64,000 bases of DNA from Patescibacteria group bacterium (GCA_038057125.1 JBBUDU010000002.1:85240-149239), one strand, 5' to 3'; shown: positions 1,073-23,460, counted from the stretch's first letter. Notes: a model not told the origin generated them from the letters alone. Program-made: numbers and translations.

Positions 1073-2287
1073 TTAGATATTACTCATCACGCTATACATC
1101 GGCGAAATCATCGAGATTGCAAAAAATCCAACCGATACGCCAATGACCACCATAAGAACAGGTTCTATAATCGTCGACATATTTTTTGTTGCCTCATCAA
1201 CTTCGTTCTCGTAAAAGAGCGCGACATTGAGAAGCATTGCGGAAAGCTTTCCCGTCTCCTCTCCCACTTCAACCATATCGCCTACTAAAATTGGATAAAT
1301 ATCATTACCCGCAAAAACCGACGAAAGCGGAATACCTTTTTGAACACGCTCGCCCGCAAGAATCATCAAGTCCTTGTAGTACGAATTCTGGAGAACATCT
1401 TTTGTAATGTTGATTGCCGCGACCATATCGACGCCTGATGAAAGGAGCGACGAAAGCGTGCGGGTTGTGCGTGCCGCATTCGACTGACGCACAAGGTTTC
1501 CAACAATCGGCAATCGAAAAGATATTGTCTCAAATGCGCGCTTTCCTTTCTTTGTTCTGAGTATCATAATGATAGCCGTCACGGATCCAAAAACAGCGAG
1601 GGCTACCAACAAAAAGTTGTTCGACAAAGTATCGGATATCCAAATGATAACTTTTGTGCTCGTAGGAAGCTCGGTATTAAGGTCTTTGAATGTCGCGGCA
1701 AGAGTGGGGACCACGAAAATAAACATGAGCACCGCGATAATGAGAAGCGTTACGATAACAACCGCCGGATAAATCATAGCACCCTTAATCTTTTTTTTCA
1801 GCAAATAGCTTTTTTCAAGCTGATCGCCTACAACCAAAAGTGAGTCGGAAAGTCCGCCCGACTCTTCTCCTGCACGCACCATGGAAATAAAAATTGGTGA
1901 GAAAACTTTTGGGAACTTTGCCATTCCCGCCGAGAGCGTGGACCCGCGGCTGATTTCACTTACCAAGGTTTCAATAGTTTTTTTAAACGCAAGGTTTTTT
2001 GTTTGCCGACCCAAAATAGAAAGACCGCGAGAAAGGGAGAGTCCGGCTTTCATTATCGCGCTCAAGTTGTGCGCAAGTACAATGAGCTCTTGCATCTTTA
2101 CGCGTGAAAACATCGCGTTTATAGAATCCATGCTGAGTGTGAACCCGCTACTCATCTCCTCGACAGACACGACAGATTTACCGCTACTTCGCAAGTCTGA
2201 TGCAACGGCAAAACGATCCGCGGCTTCCATCTCGCCCGCGGTCTCTTCTCCCGACAGCTCCCGCACTCTGTATTTAAATTTTGGCAT
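1073..2287 (-). CDS. pilC: type IV pilus assembly platform protein PilC (GspF family)
   Basis: 404 aa with an internally duplicated GspF-type domain; the signature occurs twice (RAGEESGGL and EVGEETGKL). Three TM helices. Followed by pilin genes. Confidence 0.9.
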   Translation of the reverse strand: MPKFKYRVRELSGEETAGEMEAADRFAVASDLRSSGKSVVSVEEMSSGFTLSMDSINAMFSRVKMQELIVLAHNLSAIMKAGLSLSRGLSILGRQTKNLAFKKTIETLVSEISRGSTLSAGMAKFPKVFSPIFISMVRAGEESGGLSDSLLVVGDQLEKSYLLKKKIKGAMIYPAVVIVTLLIIAVLMFIFVVPTLAATFKDLNTELPTSTKVIIWISDTLSNNFLLVALAVFGSVTAIIMILRTKKGKRAFETISFRLPIVGNLVRQSNAARTTRTLSSLLSSGVDMVAAINITKDVLQNSYYKDLMILAGERVQKGIPLSSVFAGNDIYPILVGDMVEVGEETGKLSAMLLNVALFYENEVDEATKNMSTIIEPVLMVVIGVSVGFFAISMISPMYSVMSNI

Positions 2288-2332
2288 TGATTATATACTC
2301 TACAGTATATCAAAGTTTATTATTTTTCATTA
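2262..2332. repeat. 71-bp perfect direct repeat, copy 1 (last codons of paralog + 32-nt spacer + first 9 codons of pilC)
   Basis: Identical base for base to 3631-3701. Contains the inverted repeat ATATACT-CTAC-AGTATAT and TATAAT 2 nt upstream of the ATG (minus strand). Confidence 0.95.
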
Positions 2333-3405
2333 GTTTTATAGATTTTCTTCTCCCCACTCGGCAGTTCATACTGCAGTTCGGTATCGGAGAGCCACTCGGG
2401 TTTAAACCAGAATATAGGTTCATTTGTTGTTTCTATGAGTTTTTTTTCTTTTGTAAAAAGGTTATAGAGATAGAGAATTGATTTTTTGCCTTCCCGCTTA
2501 TGTTGTTCTTTTAATTCTTGGTCGAATTCAACATCTCCTGTCCAAACCTGTCCTGGCTGAATTGGGAGATAACCGGTATTAACATTGAGCGGAGAACCAC
2601 CCATAGCGCCGTTCGGCGCTTCAAATATCTCAGCTTTCCAATTTTGAGTATCTATCCTGAAGTAGCCGTTAACATAGGCGCCGTCAAAAATATCACCCCA
2701 GAAGTATCTGCTGTCATCTGTCCACGTATCAAAACCGAAACTTCCTGCCATATTTGGATATTGATCAAAGGTTGATTTTGCCGACAAAACAAAGACGTCT
2801 TTCAGGGTTTTGAGGTCTTTGATGATGAGTGCGTAGTCATCCTGACCGAGGTAACCTTTCTCGAGGGCGATATATTGTTCAAGCGGGGAGACGCGGAAGG
2901 TGGGGGAATAGTTATTGTTATTAAGATTATCTTCTTTTCCAAAATCAAACAAAACCATCAATAATTTCCCTCCTTCATTATTATAACCGTACTGCCACAA
3001 TTCGCCTCTATAATTTGGTAATGGTAATCCTTTTCCGTTATCATAATTAAAATCTTGAATAAAATAAACACCACATTTATGTAATTCCATAGGGTACGCA
3101 GAATCTCGAACATTATTAATTCGAAAGCTCTTAATTGCCACTCCTGTGTTTCTATTTTTTACAAAAATCAGCGGAGACCTTTCTTTAGGCTGAGTAATCT
3201 CTGGGAACAAGCTCGCACGATCATAATCGGCTATTTCATTTTCTTCTAGACATCCGTTTGGTGATAATTCCTTTTGTGTAACTTGCGTTTGATTGTTGTT
3301 TGCTTGACTAGCTGGTTTTTTTGAAAAGACAGAATAAATAACGCTTGCACCAATAACAAACAGAGCGACAACAAGAATACTCAAGATTGTAGTTTTTCTG
3401 CTCAT
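2320..3405 (-). CDS. membrane-anchored hypothetical protein, paralog A
   Basis: 361 aa with an N-terminal TM anchor. Full-length similarity to the 3689-4762 product, with shared blocks FRVSP.EQYIAL.KGY, IIKD.KTLKDVFVL and WLSDTELQYELP.GEKKIYK.NEK. Confidence 0.7.
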   Translation of the reverse strand: MSRKTTILSILVVALFVIGASVIYSVFSKKPASQANNNQTQVTQKELSPNGCLEENEIADYDRASLFPEITQPKERSPLIFVKNRNTGVAIKSFRINNVRDSAYPMELHKCGVYFIQDFNYDNGKGLPLPNYRGELWQYGYNNEGGKLLMVLFDFGKEDNLNNNNYSPTFRVSPLEQYIALEKGYLGQDDYALIIKDLKTLKDVFVLSAKSTFDQYPNMAGSFGFDTWTDDSRYFWGDIFDGAYVNGYFRIDTQNWKAEIFEAPNGAMGGSPLNVNTGYLPIQPGQVWTGDVEFDQELKEQHKREGKKSILYLYNLFTKEKKLIETTNEPIFWFKPEWLSDTELQYELPSGEKKIYKTNEK

Positions 3406-3410
3406 GGTAG

Positions 3411-3656
3411 TTAATATTCAAACCCAAGCACTCCCGATTTTGTAGTCAGTTTAACAATCACCAGTCCGGAAAGTGTTTGCTTGGTTTCCTCCTCGCCATT
3501 CTTTTTAACTTTTATTTCCGTTTCATTCTTCTCGCGACTATACTTTGCTTTGATTTCAAAAGCCTCTTTGCTTTCAATTTTCTGCTCCAATTCTTTAATT
3601 TCGCCTTCGGTTTCATCTCCAGACAATTCGCGCACTCTGTATTTAAATTTTGGCAT
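3411..3656 (-). CDS. 81-aa chimeric ORF (duplicated PilC N-terminus fused to a copy of the C-terminal module of the 1036-aa protein)
   Basis: The first 13 aa, MPKFKYRVRELSG, equal the PilC start. The remainder aligns to the last ~68 aa of the 5490-8600 product (KELEQK; LSGLVIVKLTTKSGVLGFEY vs FTGLRILKLMTDKGNLTVEY). Confidence 0.4.
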   Translation of the reverse strand: MPKFKYRVRELSGDETEGEIKELEQKIESKEAFEIKAKYSREKNETEIKVKKNGEEETKQTLSGLVIVKLTTKSGVLGFEY

Positions 3657-3701
3657 TGATTATATACTCTACAGTATATCAAAGTTTATTATTTTTCATT
3701 A
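3631..3701. repeat. 71-bp perfect direct repeat, copy 2
   Basis: Identical to 2262-2332. Identity decays gradually on both sides. Confidence 0.95.
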
Positions 3702-4762
3702 ATTTTGTATATCTTCTTTTCCCCAGTCGGCAACTCGTATTGAAGTTCAGTATCGGATAGCCAATAGGGTCGGAAATAATAAGTAGGGTCAGTGGTTGTG
3801 GCGATAAGATATTTCTTTTTTGTAAATAGGTTGTAAATGTAAAAAGAGGAGATTTGCCCAGTTTGTATTGCTTCTTTTTGAATTTGCTGGTCAATTTCCA
3901 CAACTCCAGACCAAGGAGCAACATCTTCCCCATAAGTTAACATCCCATTGTTTATGTTAAGCGCATCGCCACCCATTGTCATTTTGGGCGCAGGAAGCAC
4001 CTCGTATGTCCAATCTATTGTATTGATACGAACGAATCCATATACCTCGGCACCAATGAACATATTGACCCAAAGATATTTACCGTCGGAAGTCCAACCA
4101 CCAGGATTAAAACCAATATCACCCGCTACCTCGGGATTCTTTTTTGTTACGTCTGTAATCGGTAATACAAAAACATCTTTCAGCGTCTTGATGTCCTTGA
4201 TGACGATGGAATGATCATCTCTGCCTCCATATCCTTTTATGAGAGCGATATATTGTTCAAAGGGGGAGACACGAAAACTACCAGTATAGTATGAAATAAA
4301 TTCTTTTGGTTTCTCTGCCATCAAAATAATAGGTTCCCCATTCCCAGAATAATTATATTTCCACAGCTCTTCTTTATATCCTACATCGTGCTTTCCTTTT
4401 TTGGGATCATAATTAAATATCCTAACCACATAAATATTACATTTAAATAGCTGCAGAGTGAAAAGTCCGGTAGAATTGCCACTTATCTGAAAATTACGCC
4501 TTTCCAAATTAGTTATTTTATCTTTTACAAAAATTGTTACGGGGGATGTTGCAAAATATCCCATATTCCCCTTTCCACGAAGTGCCGAATTTTCACCTAT
4601 TTCGTCATCCATTAAGCAAGCATCATCTATCGACCTGCTGTCCACGATGAACTCCTGCACCACTGGTGTAATCTTCCTAATACCCCAAACATAATACCCG
4701 CCCACAACAAAAGCAATGATGGCGAGGAGTACGATAATAAAAACATATTTACCAAATTTCAT
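3689..4762 (-). CDS. membrane-anchored hypothetical protein, paralog B
   Basis: 357 aa with an N-terminal TM anchor (VFIIVLLAIIAFVVGGYYVW). Paralog of the 2320-3405 product. Confidence 0.7.
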   Translation of the reverse strand: MKFGKYVFIIVLLAIIAFVVGGYYVWGIRKITPVVQEFIVDSRSIDDACLMDDEIGENSALRGKGNMGYFATSPVTIFVKDKITNLERRNFQISGNSTGLFTLQLFKCNIYVVRIFNYDPKKGKHDVGYKEELWKYNYSGNGEPIILMAEKPKEFISYYTGSFRVSPFEQYIALIKGYGGRDDHSIVIKDIKTLKDVFVLPITDVTKKNPEVAGDIGFNPGGWTSDGKYLWVNMFIGAEVYGFVRINTIDWTYEVLPAPKMTMGGDALNINNGMLTYGEDVAPWSGVVEIDQQIQKEAIQTGQISSFYIYNLFTKKKYLIATTTDPTYYFRPYWLSDTELQYELPTGEKKIYKINEK

Positions 4763-4763
4763 A

Positions 4764-4892
4764 TTAATAATCTATTGTTTGCGTATTGTTTGCACTTGGT
4801 TTTTGTGGAAACTGCTTACGCAGGTATACCACTGCGCCGGTGGTGAATAGAGCAAGGATGATAAGCGACGCGATGATGGTTTTCTTGGTCAT
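4764..4892 (-). CDS. possible 42-aa single-TM peptide
   Basis: Own translation: MTKKTIIASLIILALFTTGAVVYLRKQFPQKPSANNTQTIDY. Its ATG overlaps the upstream stop (ATGA) and it fills an otherwise empty gap in the operon. It is below the ORF-track size cut-off. Confidence 0.35.
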   Translation of the reverse strand: MTKKTIIASLIILALFTTGAVVYLRKQFPQKPSANNTQTIDY

Positions 4893-5485
4893 TTGGTAAA
4901 TTTAAAGGTGGAGAGAATACTCTTTAATCCTACCTCGTGCTGACCTTCTACGCCAAACAAAACAATAAATTCATGCAACGGGAAAAAAACGTCTACCATT
5001 TTCATCCCTTCAAAATCATAGCGATATTGAGTTCCAGTAATATTATCAATCATAATTTCAGACTTTTTAGCGTTCAATCTTTGCATATTGATTAGGTAGT
5101 ATTTTAAAAAATCCTGGGGCTGAGTAACTATACTAATAGAATCTTGCTGATTTGTATTTTCCCCATCAATCTTCATTACCGTCGTGTTAAATTTATTAGA
5201 TGGATCTGTGGATACATTCTCTTCCCACTCCCACCCCTCCGGATACCAGAACTCAAAACCAAACTCTTCATTGCGATAGAGTTTCATACCAGGATGATTC
5301 TTGCTCGTTTGCGGTTGTGTTGTTGACGAAGAAATGCTGGTCGTGCTTAGTGCTTGTGTAGAGGTCGCAACAATAACTCCGATGTTGTTGAGATAATTTG
5401 TCTGTTGATATCGATACACAATTCCTATTATCGTTAGCGTGCCGACCAATATCACTACCACCGCGATGATTATTTTCTTTTTCAT
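4889..5485 (-). CDS. membrane-anchored hypothetical protein
   Basis: The track ORF starts at a TTG (5500). The ATG at 5485 gives MKKKIIIAVVVILVG, a TM anchor followed by a Ser/Thr linker and a globular domain (FGFEFWYPEGW). Confidence 0.6.
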   Translation of the reverse strand: MKKKIIIAVVVILVGTLTIIGIVYRYQQTNYLNNIGVIVATSTQALSTTSISSSTTQPQTSKNHPGMKLYRNEEFGFEFWYPEGWEWEENVSTDPSNKFNTTVMKIDGENTNQQDSISIVTQPQDFLKYYLINMQRLNAKKSEIMIDNITGTQYRYDFEGMKMVDVFFPLHEFIVLFGVEGQHEVGLKSILSTFKFTK

Positions 5486-5489
5486 GGTG

Positions 5490-8400
5490 CTAATATTCAA
5501 CAGTTAAGTTTCCCTTGTCCGTCATCAGCTTCAGAATCCTCAATCCTGTAAAAGTTTCTTTGACTCCGCTGGTGTCGTCATCTTCATTGTTATCATTGTT
5601 CCCTTTGATTTTCTTTTTAATTTTTGTGGTGTTTTTCTTCGCATCATAGTGTGCCTCAATTTTTAGGGTACCCACCGTCGTTTTTTGTTCAAGTTCTTTG
5701 AGGTTTCCCGACTTATCCACAGACCATTCGTATTTTAGTGTAGTTTTAGGAATTGTGCTCGTTAATACACCGTTATAGACAAGTCCACCCAGCTCCAGTT
5801 TAATTTCTTTTTTCCCTTGCTTATATTTACTGAAAATGATTTGAAGGGTATTGTCTGATTTGTCGGCAACAATCGTGCTCGTGGCAGTGGTTGAGACCAT
5901 GGTGGCGGAAAGATTGTCGGTGCCGATGATATTCAATTTTTGCGTAACTACATCAAAGGTTAGGGTCGCCTCGGGAGGCGTGGTGTCAAGGGTGATGGAA
6001 TTGTCGGCTCCAACAACGACACCGTATCCACCGGTAACTGGTATTTGACTCAATGGAACATTTTGCGCCAGCGGGATAGTAGTACTACCGGCAGTGAAAT
6101 CAAGGGAGTAGGTTTGGTCGGGAGTTGTACTTGCCATCGGAGAAATCTGTATACGGTAGGTGCCTTGTTTGAGGACGGGAGAGTAGGCAACATCCTCGGG
6201 GTAGCCCTGTGGGTCTATGTCTATCGTAGTATACATAAGATCACCGGATGACCGAATGTATTCTTCGTCGGTTGAAACGCCGGCAGTATCAGAAACACTA
6301 TTACCATCTGGGTCGGTAACAGAAAGGTGTATTGGTGAATGCTTGGTAATAGCCATGGCGATAGTGGCATTTTTGGGACGACCAAAGGCGACAAAACCTG
6401 AAACTTGTTTGTATGAATTTTTTAACTTGCCTTCAATTTTTTTACCTGGTTTTGGTGCGCTAACTACATCAAAGCCCCCGCTCTCACCAACATACATAGC
6501 CTCATGGTCAATACGCCCATTTCCATCCCAATCAAAAAATAACAAATCCCCAGGCTGCAAATCTGACTCTGCTACTGGCTGTACATTGTTGTAATATTGA
6601 TCATTCGCACTTTCATATTTAATAAAATTAGAGACAAAGTTTTTATGTGGATTATTTGATCGATTGTATGACCATCCAATTAAACCGGAACAATCAACAC
6701 CATCCCCTATCCCAAAATCTCCCTTCCCTGGCGCCTTGGCATCAGGATTCCAGTATTTGTAATTTGTCTTTACGGTATTAGTGTCAGTAAAAAGTCTGTT
6801 TGCAAAATCCCACCCTTTACCACCCCAAAGATAGTTCTGGTTTAACAACTCCTTTGCCAAGTCCGCTGCTTTTATATTTAAAGGTACCTTCACCTCAAAA
6901 TCTACATTCCCCACCACACCAAACTCCTGCCACGCACTCGTATTCCCCTTGTCGTCCACCGCTCGCGCGCGCCAGTGATACGCACCTTCAGGAATAGAAT
7001 TTTCTGTGGTGGTGGCAATACCTCCAGAAACAACGAAACTGCTTTCTAAAAGATTTGTTCCATCAAACAGTTGGCTTGATTCTTTTAATTCTACTTGGAG
7101 CTTAATGTGGTCATTGTCGATGTCGGAGAGAGTTGCTTCAAAAACAACTCTTTGTTCGGCAGTCATTACTCCTTCATTAATTGTAGTTACGCCGTCCGAT
7201 TTAAATTGCAAAATATTTGAAATTGTCGGTGGTTGATTGACGGGAACCTTCCACCCATCCTGTGTTATCCACGGCAAATTATCCTGGTCGCCGTAGAAAA
7301 CATACGGTGAATCACAGAAGTTGTCACTGTTTGCATCATTGCAACCCTCGACTGGCGTATCGTAATCGCTCCAATAGTTGCCACTGACTGGAGAAACAAG
7401 ATTGAATATGTTGCCACTGCCACCACTAACATAAGTCTGCGTGGAGTTATTGATAAAATTGTTATTATAGATTTGATTACCACTGGAATAATAGAAATGG
7501 ATTCCATAGTAATTATTTGACACAGTATTGCTGGTTATGGTGTTGCCACTGGAATAGGAAAGATAGGTTCCTAAATAATTATTAGATGTAGTGTTGTTGG
7601 TCAGGGTGTTATTATTACTGAAATAGTATAATTCAATTCCGGAAACATTATTTGATACATTGTTGTTGGTCAGCATATTGCCCATGGAAGAGTAGAAAAG
7701 TAGAATTCCTCTGCTGTTATTATTTAACGAAGTATTACTGGTCAGTGTGTTGCCACTGGAAGAGTAGAGGAAGATTCCGATGTTATTATTTGATAGGGTA
7801 GTGTTACTAGTCAGTGTGTTTCCAGTGGAAGATTCAAGGTAGATTCCATGGTAATTATTTGATAAAATGTTGTTGGCTATGGTATTCTTACTCGAAAAGT
7901 AAAGATAGATTCCGAATGAAAATTTTTTAATAATGAAGTTTCTGACAGTAACGCCAGTTCTTCCGTAAAGATAGACACCGGTTCCAGTATTGCTTCCTGT
8001 CAGAGTGTGGCCGTTGCCATCTAAGGTTACACTATCACTATCTATCTGAATGGTCTCGGTTAAATCTATATTAAGTGTGCAGGTTTTAGTAGTGATATCC
8101 CAATTACCGATGAGGTAACAATCGCCGCCAGTGGTGTCGTCTTTGATAAACTTGGTGCTGTGGCGTGGCTGGATGAAAATTACATGATTGGTTGATATAT
8201 CTTGTGTATATGAATATGCTCCACTACCGTCCGATTTGAATTCGGTTAGATTATGATAATTATCCTCATATCTATAGTATATGGTGCTTGGTTGGAAACC
8301 ATGAAGGGTTATTTGGGTTGAGGTGGAGGAAGTTGAAAAAGTGGGTGGCCATATCATCATAGTTACCATCTCGGGGACTGATTCCAGTTTTAATTTGACG

Positions 8401-8600
8401 GATTCAGTGCTGTCTAAAGTAATATTAAGGTAGCTACTATCGGTAATAGAAAAACTTGTACCAATACCTTCTGTTGTGCCTGCTGGAGTAAGTACGAACG
8501 AAGGAGGTATAACTTGTGCAGAGGCAGTATTGGCAATCAAAAAAACAGAAGAAACGACAAATAAAAATGAGGTTAGTGCGAAATCGCGCAAGGAAATCAT
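5490..8600 (-). CDS. large exported protein: parallel beta-helix repeats + NlpC/P60-type cell-wall peptidase domain
   Basis: 1036 aa.
- N-terminal signal-like segment ending ANTASAQ.
- About 10 tandem ~22-aa Asn/Ser-rich units (N.L..N..GI.L..SS.N).
- Papain-like NlpC/P60 signature DCSGLIGWSY ... GRIDHEAMYVG.
- Ig-like C-terminal part. Confidence 0.85.
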   Translation of the reverse strand: MISLRDFALTSFLFVVSSVFLIANTASAQVIPPSFVLTPAGTTEGIGTSFSITDSSYLNITLDSTESVKLKLESVPEMVTMMIWPPTFSTSSTSTQITLHGFQPSTIYYRYEDNYHNLTEFKSDGSGAYSYTQDISTNHVIFIQPRHSTKFIKDDTTGGDCYLIGNWDITTKTCTLNIDLTETIQIDSDSVTLDGNGHTLTGSNTGTGVYLYGRTGVTVRNFIIKKFSFGIYLYFSSKNTIANNILSNNYHGIYLESSTGNTLTSNTTLSNNNIGIFLYSSSGNTLTSNTSLNNNSRGILLFYSSMGNMLTNNNVSNNVSGIELYYFSNNNTLTNNTTSNNYLGTYLSYSSGNTITSNTVSNNYYGIHFYYSSGNQIYNNNFINNSTQTYVSGGSGNIFNLVSPVSGNYWSDYDTPVEGCNDANSDNFCDSPYVFYGDQDNLPWITQDGWKVPVNQPPTISNILQFKSDGVTTINEGVMTAEQRVVFEATLSDIDNDHIKLQVELKESSQLFDGTNLLESSFVVSGGIATTTENSIPEGAYHWRARAVDDKGNTSAWQEFGVVGNVDFEVKVPLNIKAADLAKELLNQNYLWGGKGWDFANRLFTDTNTVKTNYKYWNPDAKAPGKGDFGIGDGVDCSGLIGWSYNRSNNPHKNFVSNFIKYESANDQYYNNVQPVAESDLQPGDLLFFDWDGNGRIDHEAMYVGESGGFDVVSAPKPGKKIEGKLKNSYKQVSGFVAFGRPKNATIAMAITKHSPIHLSVTDPDGNSVSDTAGVSTDEEYIRSSGDLMYTTIDIDPQGYPEDVAYSPVLKQGTYRIQISPMASTTPDQTYSLDFTAGSTTIPLAQNVPLSQIPVTGGYGVVVGADNSITLDTTPPEATLTFDVVTQKLNIIGTDNLSATMVSTTATSTIVADKSDNTLQIIFSKYKQGKKEIKLELGGLVYNGVLTSTIPKTTLKYEWSVDKSGNLKELEQKTTVGTLKIEAHYDAKKNTTKIKKKIKGNNDNNEDDDTSGVKETFTGLRILKLMTDKGNLTVEY

Positions 8601-8797
8601 ATGCCGTAACTCTAGGTAAAAAGTGGAGTGGTGTCAAGTGCAAAAAGAAACAATGAACAACTAATTATTTGCATCTAAACCCCTCGACTTTTTAATCAGC
8701 TGACGGGTCACCAGAGCCGTGTCTTGGGCACTGGGCTTGGACATAAACACCTTGAAGACTTCCAACTCGTTTTATTCCCACTATCTGACCGCCAATA

Positions 8798-8861
8798 TAA
8801 AATAAATATCCTGCATAATAAGTTCACGACCGTGAACTTATTATGCAGGATATTTATTTTA
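8798..8861 (-). terminator. 31-bp-arm perfect palindrome downstream of pilB
   Basis: Arms 8798-8828 and 8831-8861 pair at every position (checked base by base), with a 2-nt centre. AT-rich and followed by a T-run on the minus strand. Confidence 0.6.
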
Positions 8862-8989
8862 CTCCAACACATGATCAGCCACATGCCTCGTATACAAGGC
8901 ACAAATATCAAGTTTTCTTGAGGCGTACTTTTCGTACTGTGAAAGGAAACTTTATATTTGTAACAAAGTAGACGTGGATGTGTGACGGA

Positions 8990-10738
8990 TCATTCTGACA
9001 CCACACGCAATACTTCTTCTATTGTTGTCATTCCTTGCACTGACTTCAATATACCGTCTTCGAGCATCGTACTCATCCCTTCTTTTTTTGCATGCTCTTC
9101 AATGGCGACTGGAGTTTCTCCTTTCATGATGAGGTCGCGGATAGTAGGAGACATTTTCAAAACCTCGTGAATGCCCACACGGCCTTTGTAGCCGTCCTCC
9201 GACTCTTCTGATTTTTTGGGACGATAAAACGGAATATCTTTCCATGTTGCATTTGGCGCAACGATGTTTTCTTCTTTCAAAACTTTCATCACGCGGTCAA
9301 GGTCAACAGATTTTTTAAGCGCATCGACTTCGGCGGGACTAAGGAAATATTTTTCTTTTGAGGAGGCTAGTCGGCGCACAAGACGCTGTGCGATGATAAC
9401 ATTTACCGTTGAAACAATGAGGAACGGCTCGATATCCATATCGAGAAGACGTGGCATTGTGGCGGCGGCTGAGTTTGTGTGGAGCGTTGAAAGCACGAGG
9501 TGCCCCGTGAGCGCTGCATTCACCGCAAGCGACGCCGTTTCATTGTCACGAATTTCACCTACCATAATGATGTCCGGATCCTGACGAACGAGAGAGCGAA
9601 GACCGGAGGCAAAAGTGAGTCCTATCTCCGTCTTTACCTGCGTTTGATTTACGCGGGTCATTTGGTATTCAATCGGGTCTTCAATGGTGGAAATATTCAC
9701 ATCGGGCTCGTTTAAAATGTCCAAAATAGTATAGAGCGTTGTCGATTTACCGGACCCTGTCGGCCCCGTGGTGAGAATCATTCCCACGCGCTGTTTTGTG
9801 GCTGCATAAATACGCTCGAGCCCGGCGCCGTGAAAACCAAGACCCTCGAGAGTAAAACCAGAAACCGATTCACGCAAAAGACGCATAACCGTCTTCTCTC
9901 CGTAGTAGACAGGAAGAGTAGACACACGAAATGCAACTTTCTCTCCAGCCGATTCTATTTTGAAACGCCCGTCTTGCGGAAGACGCTTTTCATCGAGCTT
10001 CAAACTTGCAAGCACTTTAATGCGCGCGACAATTCCCGGAGCCGCGGTTTTTGGCAGAACCATCGCATCATGCAAAAGCCCGTCGATGCGATACCTTATG
10101 ACTACTTGCGAGTCCATCGGCTCAATATGAATATCTGACGCGCCCTGAATGATTGCGTGGTTGAGCAGAGTGTCCACTATCTTTACCACTGGCAAATCCT
10201 CGGCGAGTTTTTTCAAGTCCTCTTCGCTTTGCGCTTCATCGCCTTCCGCGACCATCTTGAGCGCGCTCGCCTCTTTTTCAATGATGTCACCAAACTCCGC
10301 CTTAAGACTCTTCTGATACTGGAGAAGCATTCCTTTAATAGATTCTTTGTCGGTGAGGCGTGGGAGAATCTTTAGTCCAACTTTCTTTTTGACGAACTCA
10401 ATAGCGCCGAGGTCGTCCGTGTCGAGCATCGCAACTTCAAGAGCGGAAGGTGTCTTCTTAAATGCGACAATATTGTGCTTGCGGGCGATCGGCTCCGGAA
10501 TAAGCGAGAGGATTTCAAAATCAATTTTCTGTCCTTTCAAATTTACAAAAGGAATACCGAGGATATATGCTTCCGTGCGACTGAGGTCGTCTTCGGAAAG
10601 TTTTCCTTCAGAAACGAGGATGTCCCCAAGGTACATCTTCTTTTCGACGGCACGCTTCTCGGCGTTTTCAAGCTCTGTGCGCGGTACGAGCCCCGAGTCG
10701 ATGATGAAATCCTTGAGCTGTTGATTGTTAACGGTCAT
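8990..10738 (-). CDS. pilB: type IV pilus assembly ATPase PilB (GspE family)
   Basis: 582 aa with Walker A GPTGSGKST, IIMVGEIRD, and His box LTGHLVLSTLHT. N-terminal GspE-N type domain. Confidence 0.92.
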   Translation of the reverse strand: MTVNNQQLKDFIIDSGLVPRTELENAEKRAVEKKMYLGDILVSEGKLSEDDLSRTEAYILGIPFVNLKGQKIDFEILSLIPEPIARKHNIVAFKKTPSALEVAMLDTDDLGAIEFVKKKVGLKILPRLTDKESIKGMLLQYQKSLKAEFGDIIEKEASALKMVAEGDEAQSEEDLKKLAEDLPVVKIVDTLLNHAIIQGASDIHIEPMDSQVVIRYRIDGLLHDAMVLPKTAAPGIVARIKVLASLKLDEKRLPQDGRFKIESAGEKVAFRVSTLPVYYGEKTVMRLLRESVSGFTLEGLGFHGAGLERIYAATKQRVGMILTTGPTGSGKSTTLYTILDILNEPDVNISTIEDPIEYQMTRVNQTQVKTEIGLTFASGLRSLVRQDPDIIMVGEIRDNETASLAVNAALTGHLVLSTLHTNSAAATMPRLLDMDIEPFLIVSTVNVIIAQRLVRRLASSKEKYFLSPAEVDALKKSVDLDRVMKVLKEENIVAPNATWKDIPFYRPKKSEESEDGYKGRVGIHEVLKMSPTIRDLIMKGETPVAIEEHAKKEGMSTMLEDGILKSVQGMTTIEEVLRVVSE

Positions 10739-18075: not shown

Positions 18076-18078
18076 GGG

Positions 18079-18235
18079 TGCGGGATGGGCTCTCGGTCAC
18101 GAGTTACTAAGTGTGCTCGTGTGAGTACACACTGCGCGCACTAAGTACTCTCGACCCCGCCTCACTGTCGCAGAGCGACATGTTCCGGCTTTCGATTCTC
18201 CACGCAAGGCGCGCAGGCGTCTTGCTCATCCCGCA
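18079..18235. other. tRNA-end-bounded structured element, Gly locus unit A (157 nt)
   Basis: - Starts TGCGGGATGGG, the same as the 3' end of the tRNA-Gly(UCC) gene in plus coordinates.
- Ends ATCCCGCA, the inverted complement of that start.
- First 81 nt are identical to unit B.
- Contains a long imperfect hairpin and the blocks TCGGTCACGA, TCTCGACCCCG and CTTTCGATT. Confidence 0.6.
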
Positions 18236-18279: not shown

Positions 18280-18281
18280 TG

Positions 18282-18418
18282 TGCGGGATGGGCTCTCGGT
18301 CACGAGTTACTAAGTGTGCTCGTGTGAGTACACACTGCGCGCACTAAGTACTCTCGACCCCGGCTCGCCTCTTCGCTACGCTCAGTATGGCTCCGCCTTT
18401 CGATTCTCCCATCCCGCT
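18282..18418. other. tRNA-end-bounded structured element, Gly locus unit B (137 nt)
   Basis: The 5' GCGGGATGGG pairs with the 3' CCCATCCCGC. The right end TTCGATTCTCCCATCCCGC is an inverted copy of the tRNA-Gly(UCC) T-loop, T-stem and acceptor 3' strand. Confidence 0.6.
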
Positions 18419-23123: not shown

Positions 23124-23260
23124 TTTGACGAGAGAGGAGCGTGTGGAAGTGTACCCACTTACACAACGTCCGAGCGATGTTAAAATATTGTACCCGTTAT
23201 ATCTAAATTTCTTATGGAAATTTCCACGGAAGCATCCAATGCTTCCGATTAAAAACTGTG

Positions 23261-23331
23261 TCGGGGTGCCGAGAATCGAACTCGGCCTATCTGCTCCCAA
23301 AGCAGACGTACTACCGATATACTACACCCCG
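23261..23331 (-). tRNA. tRNA-Pro (anticodon UGG)
   Basis: Hand-folded 71 nt: acceptor CGGGGTG/CACCCCG, anticodon arm TCTGC-TTTGGGA-GCAGA, T arm CCGAG-TTCGATT-CTCGG. Confidence 0.88.
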
Positions 23332-23344
23332 ACACAATTTTTAA

Positions 23345-23460
23345 TCCCAAAGCAGACGTACTACCGATATATAACTGAATACAATATATTCTGCGCTCGC
23401 TCGGAAATTAAAACTTGCTAGTTTTATTTCGCTCACTCGCTTGAATATACTACACCCCGA
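23345..23460 (-). pseudogene. tRNA-Pro 5'-half pseudo-copy with a 73-nt insertion in the D-loop
   Basis: A 27-nt exact copy (23345-23371 = 23295-23321) and a 16-nt exact copy (23445-23460 = 23317-23332). ATATA is present on both sides of the insert but only once in the intact gene. Confidence 0.6.

Follow-up and report, generated by a model that had tools for sequence, protein, structure and literature searches.

The locus lies within a type IV pilus operon on the minus strand of a 64,000-nucleotide stretch of DNA from a groundwater Patescibacteria genome, referred to here as the window. The operon genes pilB and pilC are separated by an insertion that carries a cluster of surface-protein genes and both copies of a short direct repeat. 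The genes, in the order in which they are read, are as follows.

8990..10738, minus strand: pilB, encoding an ATPase; in relatives whose contig reaches upstream it is usually found directly before pilC.
2288..8984, minus strand: lineage-specific insertion between pilB and pilC, holding both repeat copies and delimited by comparison with a sister species.
5490..8600, minus strand: big, encoding a 1036-aa beta-helix (NosD-like) and NlpC/P60 protein, with its own promoter-like site at 8609-8637.
4889..5500, minus strand: gene for a 203-aa anchored protein (198 aa from ATG), weakly PsbP-like, of a family that often adjoins par genes.
4764..4892, minus strand: 42-aa ORF, by protein and DNA alignment an apparent relic of an A-type par N-terminus and a further recombination scar.
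3689..4762, minus strand: parB, 357 aa, of the same family as parA and placed by the tree as a Minisyncoccia-type allele.
3411..3656, minus strand: orf81, 81 aa, aligned as a chimera of pilC codons 1-16, a join at codons 17-20 and an A-type big-protein C-terminal half-domain.
2320..3405, minus strand: parA, 361 aa, with an N-terminal membrane anchor and a beta-propeller (AlphaFold model), placed by the tree as a Yonathbacteria-type allele.
1073..2287, minus strand: pilC, 404 aa, T2SSF family, identified by Pfam and orthologues.

The limits of the insertion are given by the sister species L122 (PilC 88%), in which pilB and pilC are adjacent, the outer synteny is identical and the whole block is absent. 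Going along the window, homology to L122 is lost at 8984 and regained at the ATG of pilC (2287). The two genes are also adjacent in most of the 80 metagenome loci with a contig that extends upstream of pilC. The block is missing from this closest sampled sister species and from every other pilC locus examined, and the insertion is young. A test for a hybrid backbone, in which the closest relatives of PilB and PilC were compared, gave no clear discordance. A gene with a Competence domain is found nearby in the sister species.

The par proteins match no Pfam family. The AlphaFold model of the parA product has a pLDDT of 84.8, and its structural matches are only generic beta-propellers, at TM-scores of about 0.4. 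Each par copy is a full ORF that has in front of it either a start or an upstream ORF to which it is coupled, and the pairing of big followed by par is kept in most of 27 Patescibacteria genome loci. The original prediction placed the two par genes at 50-60 percent similarity and took the second unit to be a copy of the resident big and parB, and neither statement agrees with what we find. The two proteins are 39% identical. The closest relative of parA is a Yonathbacteria gene (L008, 71% aa) and that of parB a Minisyncoccia gene (L024, 76%), which belong to different clades; the big-derived part of orf81 likewise has its closest relatives elsewhere. By these comparisons parA and parB are evidently not sister copies. 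The 42-aa ORF aligns with the parA N-terminus at 46% identity over 41 aa (E 2e-8), and two further genes from a second strain (par3 and A' of strain H52) are mosaics that resemble parA and parB in parts, par3 being another scar.

The repeat and the elements within or next to it are listed below.

2262..2332, minus strand: repeat copy R_A, in which the end of parA (three codons and stop) is followed by a 32-nt spacer and by the initial 26 nt of pilC; identical to 3631-3701.
3631..3701, minus strand: repeat copy R_B, in which the end of parB is followed by that same spacer (32 nt) and by the initial 26 nt of orf81; identical to 2262-2332.
2304..2312, minus strand: extended -10-like box TGATATACT of copy A, 16 nt before the pilC ATG; a motif with putative promoter activity.
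3673..3681, minus strand: the same motif, TGATATACT, in copy B, 16 nt before the orf81 ATG.
2293..2310 (copy A) and 3662-3679 (copy B), no strand assigned: 18-bp palindrome ATATACT-GTAG-AGTATAT overlapping the -10 box, a candidate operator by its sequence.
3597..3608, minus strand: join point of the chimera, orf81 codons 17-20 (GAA GGC GAA ATT), set by the limits of nucleotide homology.

A perfect 71-bp repeat that joins a par 3' end, a 32-nt spacer and a pilC start had been proposed here, and both its length and its layout are as described. The longest exact match between the copies is exactly 71 nt (2262-2332 and 3631-3701), which makes it the longest exact direct repeat within the window, and no piece of it of at least 12 nt occurs again in the 64 kb. 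Both copies have the minus strand as coding strand and the same orientation, and they lie one unit length apart (1369 nt), the unit being composed of orf81, parA and the spacer. Each copy contains 1 nt and the three final codons of a par gene together with its stop (..T AAT GAA AAA TAA), 32 nt between that stop and the pilC ATG, and the pilC start (ATG CCA AAA TTT AAA TAC AGA GTG CG). The junction was sampled in two near-clonal strains, H41 and H52, and all four copies are identical. Among about 120 fetched loci, including other tandem par arrays and pilC loci, junction repeats of this kind were confined to this lineage.

The chimeric nature of orf81, also proposed earlier, was confirmed by alignment. 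Residues 1-16 match PilC, and from residue 18 onward it can be aligned with the last 79 aa of the 1036-aa protein (40% identity, E 1e-4). At the nucleotide level, pilC-like sequence ends at around codons 16-19 and homology to the A-type big gene of strain H52 begins at position 3605. The join coincides with a microhomology, where pilC reads GCG GGC GAG ATG and the A-type big gene reads ACG GGC GAA ATC. The big-derived part is far closer to the C-terminus of the Yonathbacteria L008 big protein (E 3e-28) than to the big protein of its own genome, and is 82.7% identical to the H52-strain big over 375 nt. The reading frame of orf81 is intact in both strains, and 5 nt separate its stop codon from the ATG of parA. 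No Pfam family matches orf81; with modest confidence, we suggest that it retains about six of the ten strands of the big C-terminal beta domain. A search with orf81 for other chimeric pilC-start ORFs returned only the cluster of this species and three big C-terminal ORFs that are not chimeric. Standalone small ORFs made of the big C-terminal domain do occur after par genes in other lineages, and orf81 might therefore have a function as a protein.

The edges of the repeat are sharp. Flanking similarity had been described as decaying smoothly and used as evidence for duplication, and such a gradient is absent: identity falls abruptly to the family background on both sides. On the par side, 20 of the 35 degenerate codons that encode identical residues differ between the copies, compared with 0/10 inside the repeat, and synonymous differences are seen in each of codons 9-12 on the pilC side. 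Over the 60 nt that lead up to the repeat, A and B are 80% identical; B and the Yonathbacteria gene are also 80% identical there, and the Yonathbacteria and Minisyncoccia genes 77%. The 80% flank identity reads as family-level conservation of the C-terminal motif WLSDTELQYELPxGEKK. The 32-nt spacer is lineage-specific and resembles neither what separates pilB from pilC in the sister species nor the 3' flanks of other par genes; a search for its origin in the par 3' flanks of other genomes gave a weak resemblance in L024 only. Both copies also share the codon AGA (Arg) at position 7, where Arg is found in none of 20 pilC orthologues. Because this codon is specific to the lineage, the identity of the copies would reflect recent shared ancestry, reached through unequal recombination or short gene conversion, and selection on a signal does not by itself appear to explain it. 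An island of identity with a shared derived codon is the pattern of a conversion tract. Of conversion and selection, which had been offered as alternatives, conversion is viable and selection alone unlikely, given the shared AGA and the diverged upstream regions of orthologues.

Comparison of the two strains captures exchange at the locus. Four large H41 contigs have the same structure, as do several H52 assemblies made independently, an NCBI MAG among them; together they represent two wells. Both repeat copies are present and identical in the H52 contigs L003 and L035. Re-sequencing that exposed an assembly duplication had been named as a possible refutation, and this reproduction indicates that the repeat is not an artefact. 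H41 and H52 have no differences over 4738-3551 and 2340-2055, and a single imported tract, 3474..2341, extends from orf81 codon 61 to 9 nt before R_A. In H52, parA is replaced by a different allele. Cassette replacement between near-identical strains is directly observed. The remaining differences are clustered in short patches of roughly 20-70 nt.

The spacer contains a plausible entry point for transcription. Its box has the TGnTAnnnT form of an extended -10 promoter, 16 nt upstream of the ATG. The pattern TGNTATAMT has seven matches in the window compared with 3.0 expected, and four of the five outside the repeat lie just upstream of genes. In relatives, TGnTATACT or GATAAT is found 10-16 nt upstream of the pilC start. 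Compared with the 6-11 nt by which TATACT precedes the ATG of many genes, the junction box is farther away, at 16 nt. A sigma-70 consensus scan did not flag the junction, nor was a -35 hexamer reported at 16-18 nt spacing. The putative promoter is read from the extended -10 motif only. Extended -10 promoters can work without a -35 element. The palindrome has no other perfect copy in the window, and its matches with up to two mismatches outside the repeat are at chance level. The predicted RNA fold of the junction is no better than those of shuffled sequences (z 0.39), and no Rfam family was found in 2000-4000.

The palindrome, a TATAAT 2 nt before the ATG and a junction that lacks a Shine-Dalgarno sequence had all been noted earlier, and each observation is accurate. 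The missing Shine-Dalgarno sequence is, however, a genome-wide trait rather than a peculiarity of the junction, since such motifs precede 5 of 53 ORFs. A leaderless mRNA would be expected to have its -10 element about 6-8 nt upstream of the start, whereas TATACT lies 16 nt and TATAAT 2 nt from the ATG; the predicted transcript leader is about 9 nt. A small literature check for leaderless translation in CPR found nothing specific. Intergenic gaps in the cluster are at most 6 nt, with four exceptions: the two 32-nt repeat spacers, one gap before big that contains the promoter-like site, and a 134-nt gap before a TIM gene. The repeat probably provides the second cassette with its own promoter and start. 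Shine-Dalgarno sequences are nearly absent, and each gene of the cluster either closely follows a -10 box or starts no more than 6 nt from the stop before it. On these grounds orf81 most likely serves as a leader, translated so as to bring ribosomes to parA, rather than as a folded protein.

On the account that we favour, a hypervariable cassette locus has the repeat as its constant junction, and this junction was copied by non-allelic recombination. Taken as a whole, we consider this account evenly poised between right and wrong. In one Yonathbacteria-like lineage, a hypervariable surface-protein cassette locus would have entered the type IV pilus operon, with a constant junction formed by the par stop, the lineage-specific spacer with its promoter-like box, and the codon-conserved first 26 nt of pilC. 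Microhomology-mediated non-allelic recombination would have joined pilC at around codon 17-19 to an A-type big C-terminal domain, linking a bigB..parB-junction-pilC' haplotype to a bigA-parA-junction-pilC haplotype. The outcome would be a second cassette, composed of a big C-terminus and a beta-propeller, stacked in front of pilC. The junction copies would be identical by recent ancestry and their flanking sequences would be different alleles. Outside DNA would keep replacing alleles up to the point where donor homology ends, which may be the par stop codon and, in the other direction, the conserved 5' end of pilC. The copied junction would act as the transcription and translation entry point for the second cassette. 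The repeat, the chimera with its join, the separate ancestry of the two units, the insertion as compared with the sister species, the cassette swap between strains, the scarcity of Shine-Dalgarno sites and the gene spacing are all seen in the sequences; we infer that the promoter is active, that translation is coupled, and how many recombination events there were and in what order. No sampled haplotype has bigA-parA directly before pilC, so the two-haplotype origin is a reconstruction. A constant backbone common to two divergent haplotypes that were then joined is a viable reading.

The main alternative is an old in-situ tandem duplication of a unit comprising the big C-terminus, par and the pilC start, followed by recent short-tract conversion of the 71 bp only. 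We regard it as possible, if on balance unlikely. A tandem duplication would fit both the architecture and the period of 1369 nt, and conversion would account for an identity island with saturated flanks and a shared derived AGA codon. Recombination patches of 20-70 nt are common between the two strains, so tracts of such size do occur in the population. Across the pilC-derived codons 9-19 of orf81, 9 of 33 nt differ from the resident pilC, which is many for a close haplotype and would equally fit an older in-situ duplication with conversion. Against this, neither parA and parB nor orf81 and the resident big C-terminus are closest relatives, and extra cassette replacements would be needed anyway. 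The absence of the insertion from the sister species also leaves little time for in-situ divergence to 39% identity, and the flanks offer only about 80% identity for the initiation of conversion. The duplication that was originally predicted is correct in part: the pilC start has been copied before a big C-terminus and a par gene with a fitting period, but the second unit is not a diverged resident copy. Direct copies one unit apart, and a join between the 5' end of the downstream gene and the 3' part of the gene that opens the unit, are as expected of duplication. The units are not each other's closest relatives, and their similarity drops abruptly on both sides instead of being uniform or gradually falling.

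A third reading is that the locus is an active switch, in which the 71-mers delete or amplify orf81-parA, or anchor programmed swaps, to give phase or antigenic variation of pilus-associated surface proteins. The cassette by which the near-identical strains differ does lie between direct repeats, the locus contains several truncated or mosaic copies, and it is part of a type IV pilus operon. Cultivated Patescibacteria are described as living attached to other microbes, and their type IV pili as predicted to mediate host contact, which has been tested in Saccharibacteria (PMC11623550). We nonetheless consider a switch very unlikely. None of the contigs carrying parB, orf81 or PilC is a deletion or amplification variant, whether with parB joined directly to pilC or with more than two copies. 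The strain swap ends outside the repeat and resembles an ordinary homologous import, no recombinase gene was found among the window-cluster proteins scanned against Pfam, and the copies are complete ORFs rather than silent cassettes.

Purifying selection on a nucleotide signal might instead have frozen all 71 positions since an old duplication. Codons 2-8 of pilC are indeed conserved as codons among 20 orthologues (81% same codon compared with 44% for codons 9-30, p 1e-11), the -10-like box recurs before pilC in relatives, and the palindrome overlaps it. Outside the box, however, even orthologues with 79-88% PilC identity have upstream regions that bear no relation to the spacer, so function does not need the exact sequence. 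With flanks as diverged as these, 32 non-coding nucleotides would all stay unchanged with a probability of 8e-4 if a per-site difference of 20% is assumed and of 1e-5 if it is 30%; at the 57% found for synonymous codons the value is far lower still. With neither an RNA family match nor a significant RNA fold to add to these figures, we judge such freezing highly improbable. That an assembler created the repeat or the tandem order is scarcely credible: Logan-source contigs do break inside the repeat, which we read as the expected behaviour of a short-k-mer assembler, but each copy has unique flanks only 71 nt apart that allow only one linear path through the two copies, and the same order recurs in the H41, H52 and NCBI MAG assemblies.

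On the favoured account of a copied constant junction, this is an ordinary, known kind of event in an interesting hypervariable locus. A surface-protein module, composed of a beta-helix and a membrane-anchored beta-propeller, has been inserted recently between pilB and pilC and has been reshuffled between near-clonal strains of one aquifer. The 71-bp repeat may serve as a compact marker of cassette stacking and of the supply of expression signals in a genome that seemingly does without Shine-Dalgarno-based initiation. For annotation, short chimeric ORFs of this sort need not be functionless relics, and paralogs in tandem need not be in-situ duplicates. We find it doubtful, though worth stating, that the junction is the constant anchor of a modular diversification system by which Patescibacteria of this group stack and swap surface cassettes in the pilus operon using DNA taken up from relatives, and express each stacked cassette from a copied pilC promoter and start through a short chimeric leader. 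If so, the module ends (the big and par C-terminal motifs) and the junction would be recombination sites built into the system, with strain-specific host attachment as the trait under diversifying selection.

Several known systems share features with this locus. Tandem and segmental duplications in bacteria generate chimeric ORFs at their join points and can capture promoters, and the joins lie at microhomologies. The same-orientation direct repeats with a period of one unit length and the fusion of gene 5' and 3' parts at a microhomology are of this type, as is a copied, here putative, promoter with a start codon that would drive the second unit. Unlike in a simple duplication, the units are divergent alleles of different clades, identity is limited to the 71-bp junction, and the event took place inside a recently inserted, recombination-scarred block. 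In naturally transformable bacteria, homology-facilitated illegitimate recombination uses homology at one end and a microhomology of 3-10 nt at the other. This may have been the mechanism here: the microhomology join GGCGA(R)AT adjoins a long homologous backbone on the pilB side, patchy imports are present in the population, and the locus is a pilus operon.

The Neisseria pilE/pilS system produces antigenic variation by gene conversion. It too involves a type IV pilus-associated locus with variable cassettes between short constant anchors and with truncated copies, and constant anchors with exchange between near-identical strains are found here as well (tract 3474..2341, H41/H52). The variable genes of our locus, in contrast, encode beta-propeller and beta-helix surface proteins and not pilin. 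The arrangement also differs from one expressed locus with promoterless partial silent copies, in that the copies are complete ORFs with starts, and no intragenomic switching was observed. Short tracts can also evolve in concert between paralogues, for example in tufA/tufB. As in that pair, an island of perfect identity lies between otherwise diverged copies; unlike in tufA/tufB, the island is 71 bp long, mostly non-coding, and ends exactly where the sequence turns lineage-specific. Finally, mycobacteria use leaderless or short-leader mRNAs and stop-start coupling (PMC3898074, PMC4633059). The leader at our junction differs from a leaderless mRNA in being, as predicted from sequence, about 9 nt and not zero, and the locus resembles the mycobacterial systems in its -10 boxes a few nucleotides before starts, its near absence of Shine-Dalgarno sequences and its tight gene spacing.

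All genes of the region, from pilB through the pseudopilins, are carried on the minus strand and are listed below. The window sequence is identical to contig Hain_H41_01um_R3_17 (305,862 bp), and the nearest named relatives of its genome are Candidatus Yonathbacteria.

Genes of the pilus locus
10738-8990, minus: pilB, ATPase
8600-5490, minus: big, 1036 aa, beta-helix (NosD-like) and NlpC/P60
5500-4889, minus: 203-aa protein, membrane-anchored
4892-4764, minus: 42-aa ORF, relic of an A-type par N-terminus
4762-3689, minus: parB, 357 aa
3656-3411, minus: orf81, 81 aa, chimeric
3405-2320, minus: parA, 361 aa
2287-1073, minus: pilC, 404 aa
1071-607 and 600-112, minus: two pseudopilins

The par proteins are beta-propellers with a membrane anchor, and those of the window are without any covering Pfam family. 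The gap between pilB and big contains an inverted repeat (8798-8861) whose 31-nt arms match perfectly around a 2-nt loop; it reads as a bidirectional terminator and is followed by a promoter-like site, TTGACA-17-TAGAGT, at 8637-8609.

Segments 2262-2332 (before pilC) and 3631-3701 (before orf81) match exactly over 71 nt and no further, as the original prediction held, and 12-mers of the repeat do not recur elsewhere in the window. Read on the coding strand, the repeat comprises the end of a par gene (T AAT GAA AAA TAA), the 32-nt spacer (TAAACTTTGATATACTGTAGAGTATATAATCA) and the start of pilC (ATG CCA AAA TTT AAA TAC AGA GTG CG). The junction palindrome, the TATAAT 2 nt 5' of the ATG and the missing SD sequence were likewise described correctly. 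The smooth decay of flanking similarity is not; codon and identity comparisons show an abrupt loss. Across the 56 codons that lead up to the repeat, 20 of the 35 same-residue codons are spelled differently in parA and parB, compared with 0 of 10 inside it, where the 32 non-coding bases are also unchanged. Beyond the repeat on the pilC side, every one of codons 9-12 has synonymous differences. In the 60 nt directly before the repeat parA and parB are 80% identical; parB and a Yonathbacteria gene give the same value (80%), Yonathbacteria and Minisyncoccia 77%. The flank similarity therefore reflects a conserved C-terminal motif of the par family and is no residue of duplication.

The reading we favour is that non-allelic recombination joined two haplotypes; the repeat would be the backbone common to both, and its flanks exchangeable cassettes. 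The main rival has an older duplication, with the 71 bp converted afterwards. Codon 7 is AGA (Arg) in both copies, and none of 20 orthologues has Arg there; the copies' common ancestry is therefore more recent than that of their flanks. Constraint accounts for part of the coding end: across 20 orthologues, codon identity is kept in 81% of cases at pilC codons 2-8 but in 44% at codons 9-30. It does not account for the spacer; the upstream regions of pilC orthologues have only a -10-like box in common. An assembly artefact is excluded for practical purposes because the same structure recurs in four large contigs from H41 and in several independent assemblies of the near-identical strain from well H52.

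The two units are not sister copies. parA and parB share 39% identity, below the roughly 50-60 percent first estimated, and a neighbour-joining tree places them in different clades, parB beside a Minisyncoccia MAG gene (76%) and parA beside a Yonathbacteria gene (71%). orf81 is indeed a pilC start joined to a homologue of the big C-terminus: residues 1-16 are PilC-like and the rest is big-type. From codon 18 (window 3605) its DNA is 82.7% identical to a stretch of the H52 strain that takes in the C-terminus of an A-type big gene and the 5' end of the par gene belonging to it. At the join both parents have (C)G GGC GA(R) AT in common, and over about 20 residues the big-type segment resembles the N-terminus of PilC by chance. 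orf81 is far closer to the big C-terminus of Yonathbacteria (E 3e-28) than to the big protein encoded in its own genome (only E 1e-4); its predicted structure (pLDDT 67) retains about 6 of the 10 strands in an all-beta domain. Of the proposed ancestral tandem unit, the second junction before a big-type C-terminus and par stands, but the tree and these E-values argue against sister units.

The scar sits in a locus more dynamic than originally supposed, with recombination visible between strains. Over 4738-3551 and 2340-2055 the H52 strain matches the window without a difference; one differing tract runs from 3474 (orf81 codon 61) to 2341, 9 nt before the pilC-side copy, in which another allele replaces parA; the remaining differences are short clusters, for example at pilC codons 178-184. 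The ATG of the replacement allele is one base out of frame at an A7 run (ATGATAATAGAAAAAAACAG; L003:1365-1400) seen in 6 of 6 H52 contigs (L003, L035, L036, L037, L006, L038), which makes it a pseudogene or else a start prone to slippage. As a further scar, the H52 strain carries an extra big'-par3 module and, after it, a 124-aa ORF left over from the resident big gene; the last 82 codons of this ORF are almost the same as the C-terminus of the window's big. Over its last 455 codons the big' gene does not match the window's big in nucleotide sequence, and par3 is a mosaic (both L036:1-1919, L120). Just upstream of parB, the 42-aa ORF is 46% identical to the parA N-terminus (E 2e-8) and is another scar, a relic of an A-type par protein's N-terminal membrane anchor; its stop overlaps the parB start (TAATATG).

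The block between pilB and pilC is a recent insertion. Where the contig extends far enough upstream, most of the 80 metagenome loci with relatives of PilC have the order pilB-pilC-pseudopilins. The closest sister species, GCA_016215205.1 (PilC 88%), shares the outer synteny, from nusA to recJ, but has pilC directly after pilB; homology to the window breaks off at 8984 and picks up again exactly at the pilC ATG, and its pilB-pilC spacer is unrelated to the repeat's 32-nt spacer. Elsewhere in the window, two 86-nt direct repeats, 99% identical (18078-18163 and 18281-18366), adjoin tRNA-Gly(tcc), each closing with a copy of its 3' end (CCCATCCCGCAC) with hairpins around; they may be relics of integrations there. 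A 27-nt exact direct repeat (23295-23321 and 23345-23371), one copy inside tRNA-Pro(tgg) (23260-23331), looks like a duplicated attachment site.

SD-like motifs are present before only 5 of the 53 long ORFs in the window, and the genome has hardly any of them. A TATACT or TATAAT box stands 6-11 nt before the ATG of many genes, which suggests leaderless or very short-leader mRNAs. TGNTATAMT occurs at 7 sites against 3.0 expected, and 4 of the 5 outside the repeat precede genes. Same-strand gaps in the cluster are at most 6 nt save four: the two 32-nt repeat spacers, the promoter-bearing gap before big and a 134-nt gap before the TIM gene. From motif enrichment, box spacing and the few large gaps, we infer that the copied junction probably supplies a promoter and start. 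orf81, whose stop lies 5 nt before parA, probably passes ribosomes on to it.

In a conserved module found across Patescibacteria (L008, L009, L012, L016, L019, L023-L027 and other loci), a par gene comes directly after a big gene, and the pair is often trailed by a small ORF of the big C-terminal domain or a member of the 203-aa family. The pairs form tandem arrays in L026 and L013 and are fused into one protein in L011. In the Minisyncoccia MAG (L024:3937-7936) the module lies between two pseudopilin genes, not pilB and pilC. Its point of entry into the pilus operon differs between lineages. Two pilC relatives (L044:5220-6369, L045:5229-5754) have 27-37-nt exact repeats near the starts of successive pseudopilin genes, which may be a further case of identical 5' ends in neighbouring paralogues. 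That the 71-bp repeat is real, and a recombination scar of a known kind, is well supported.
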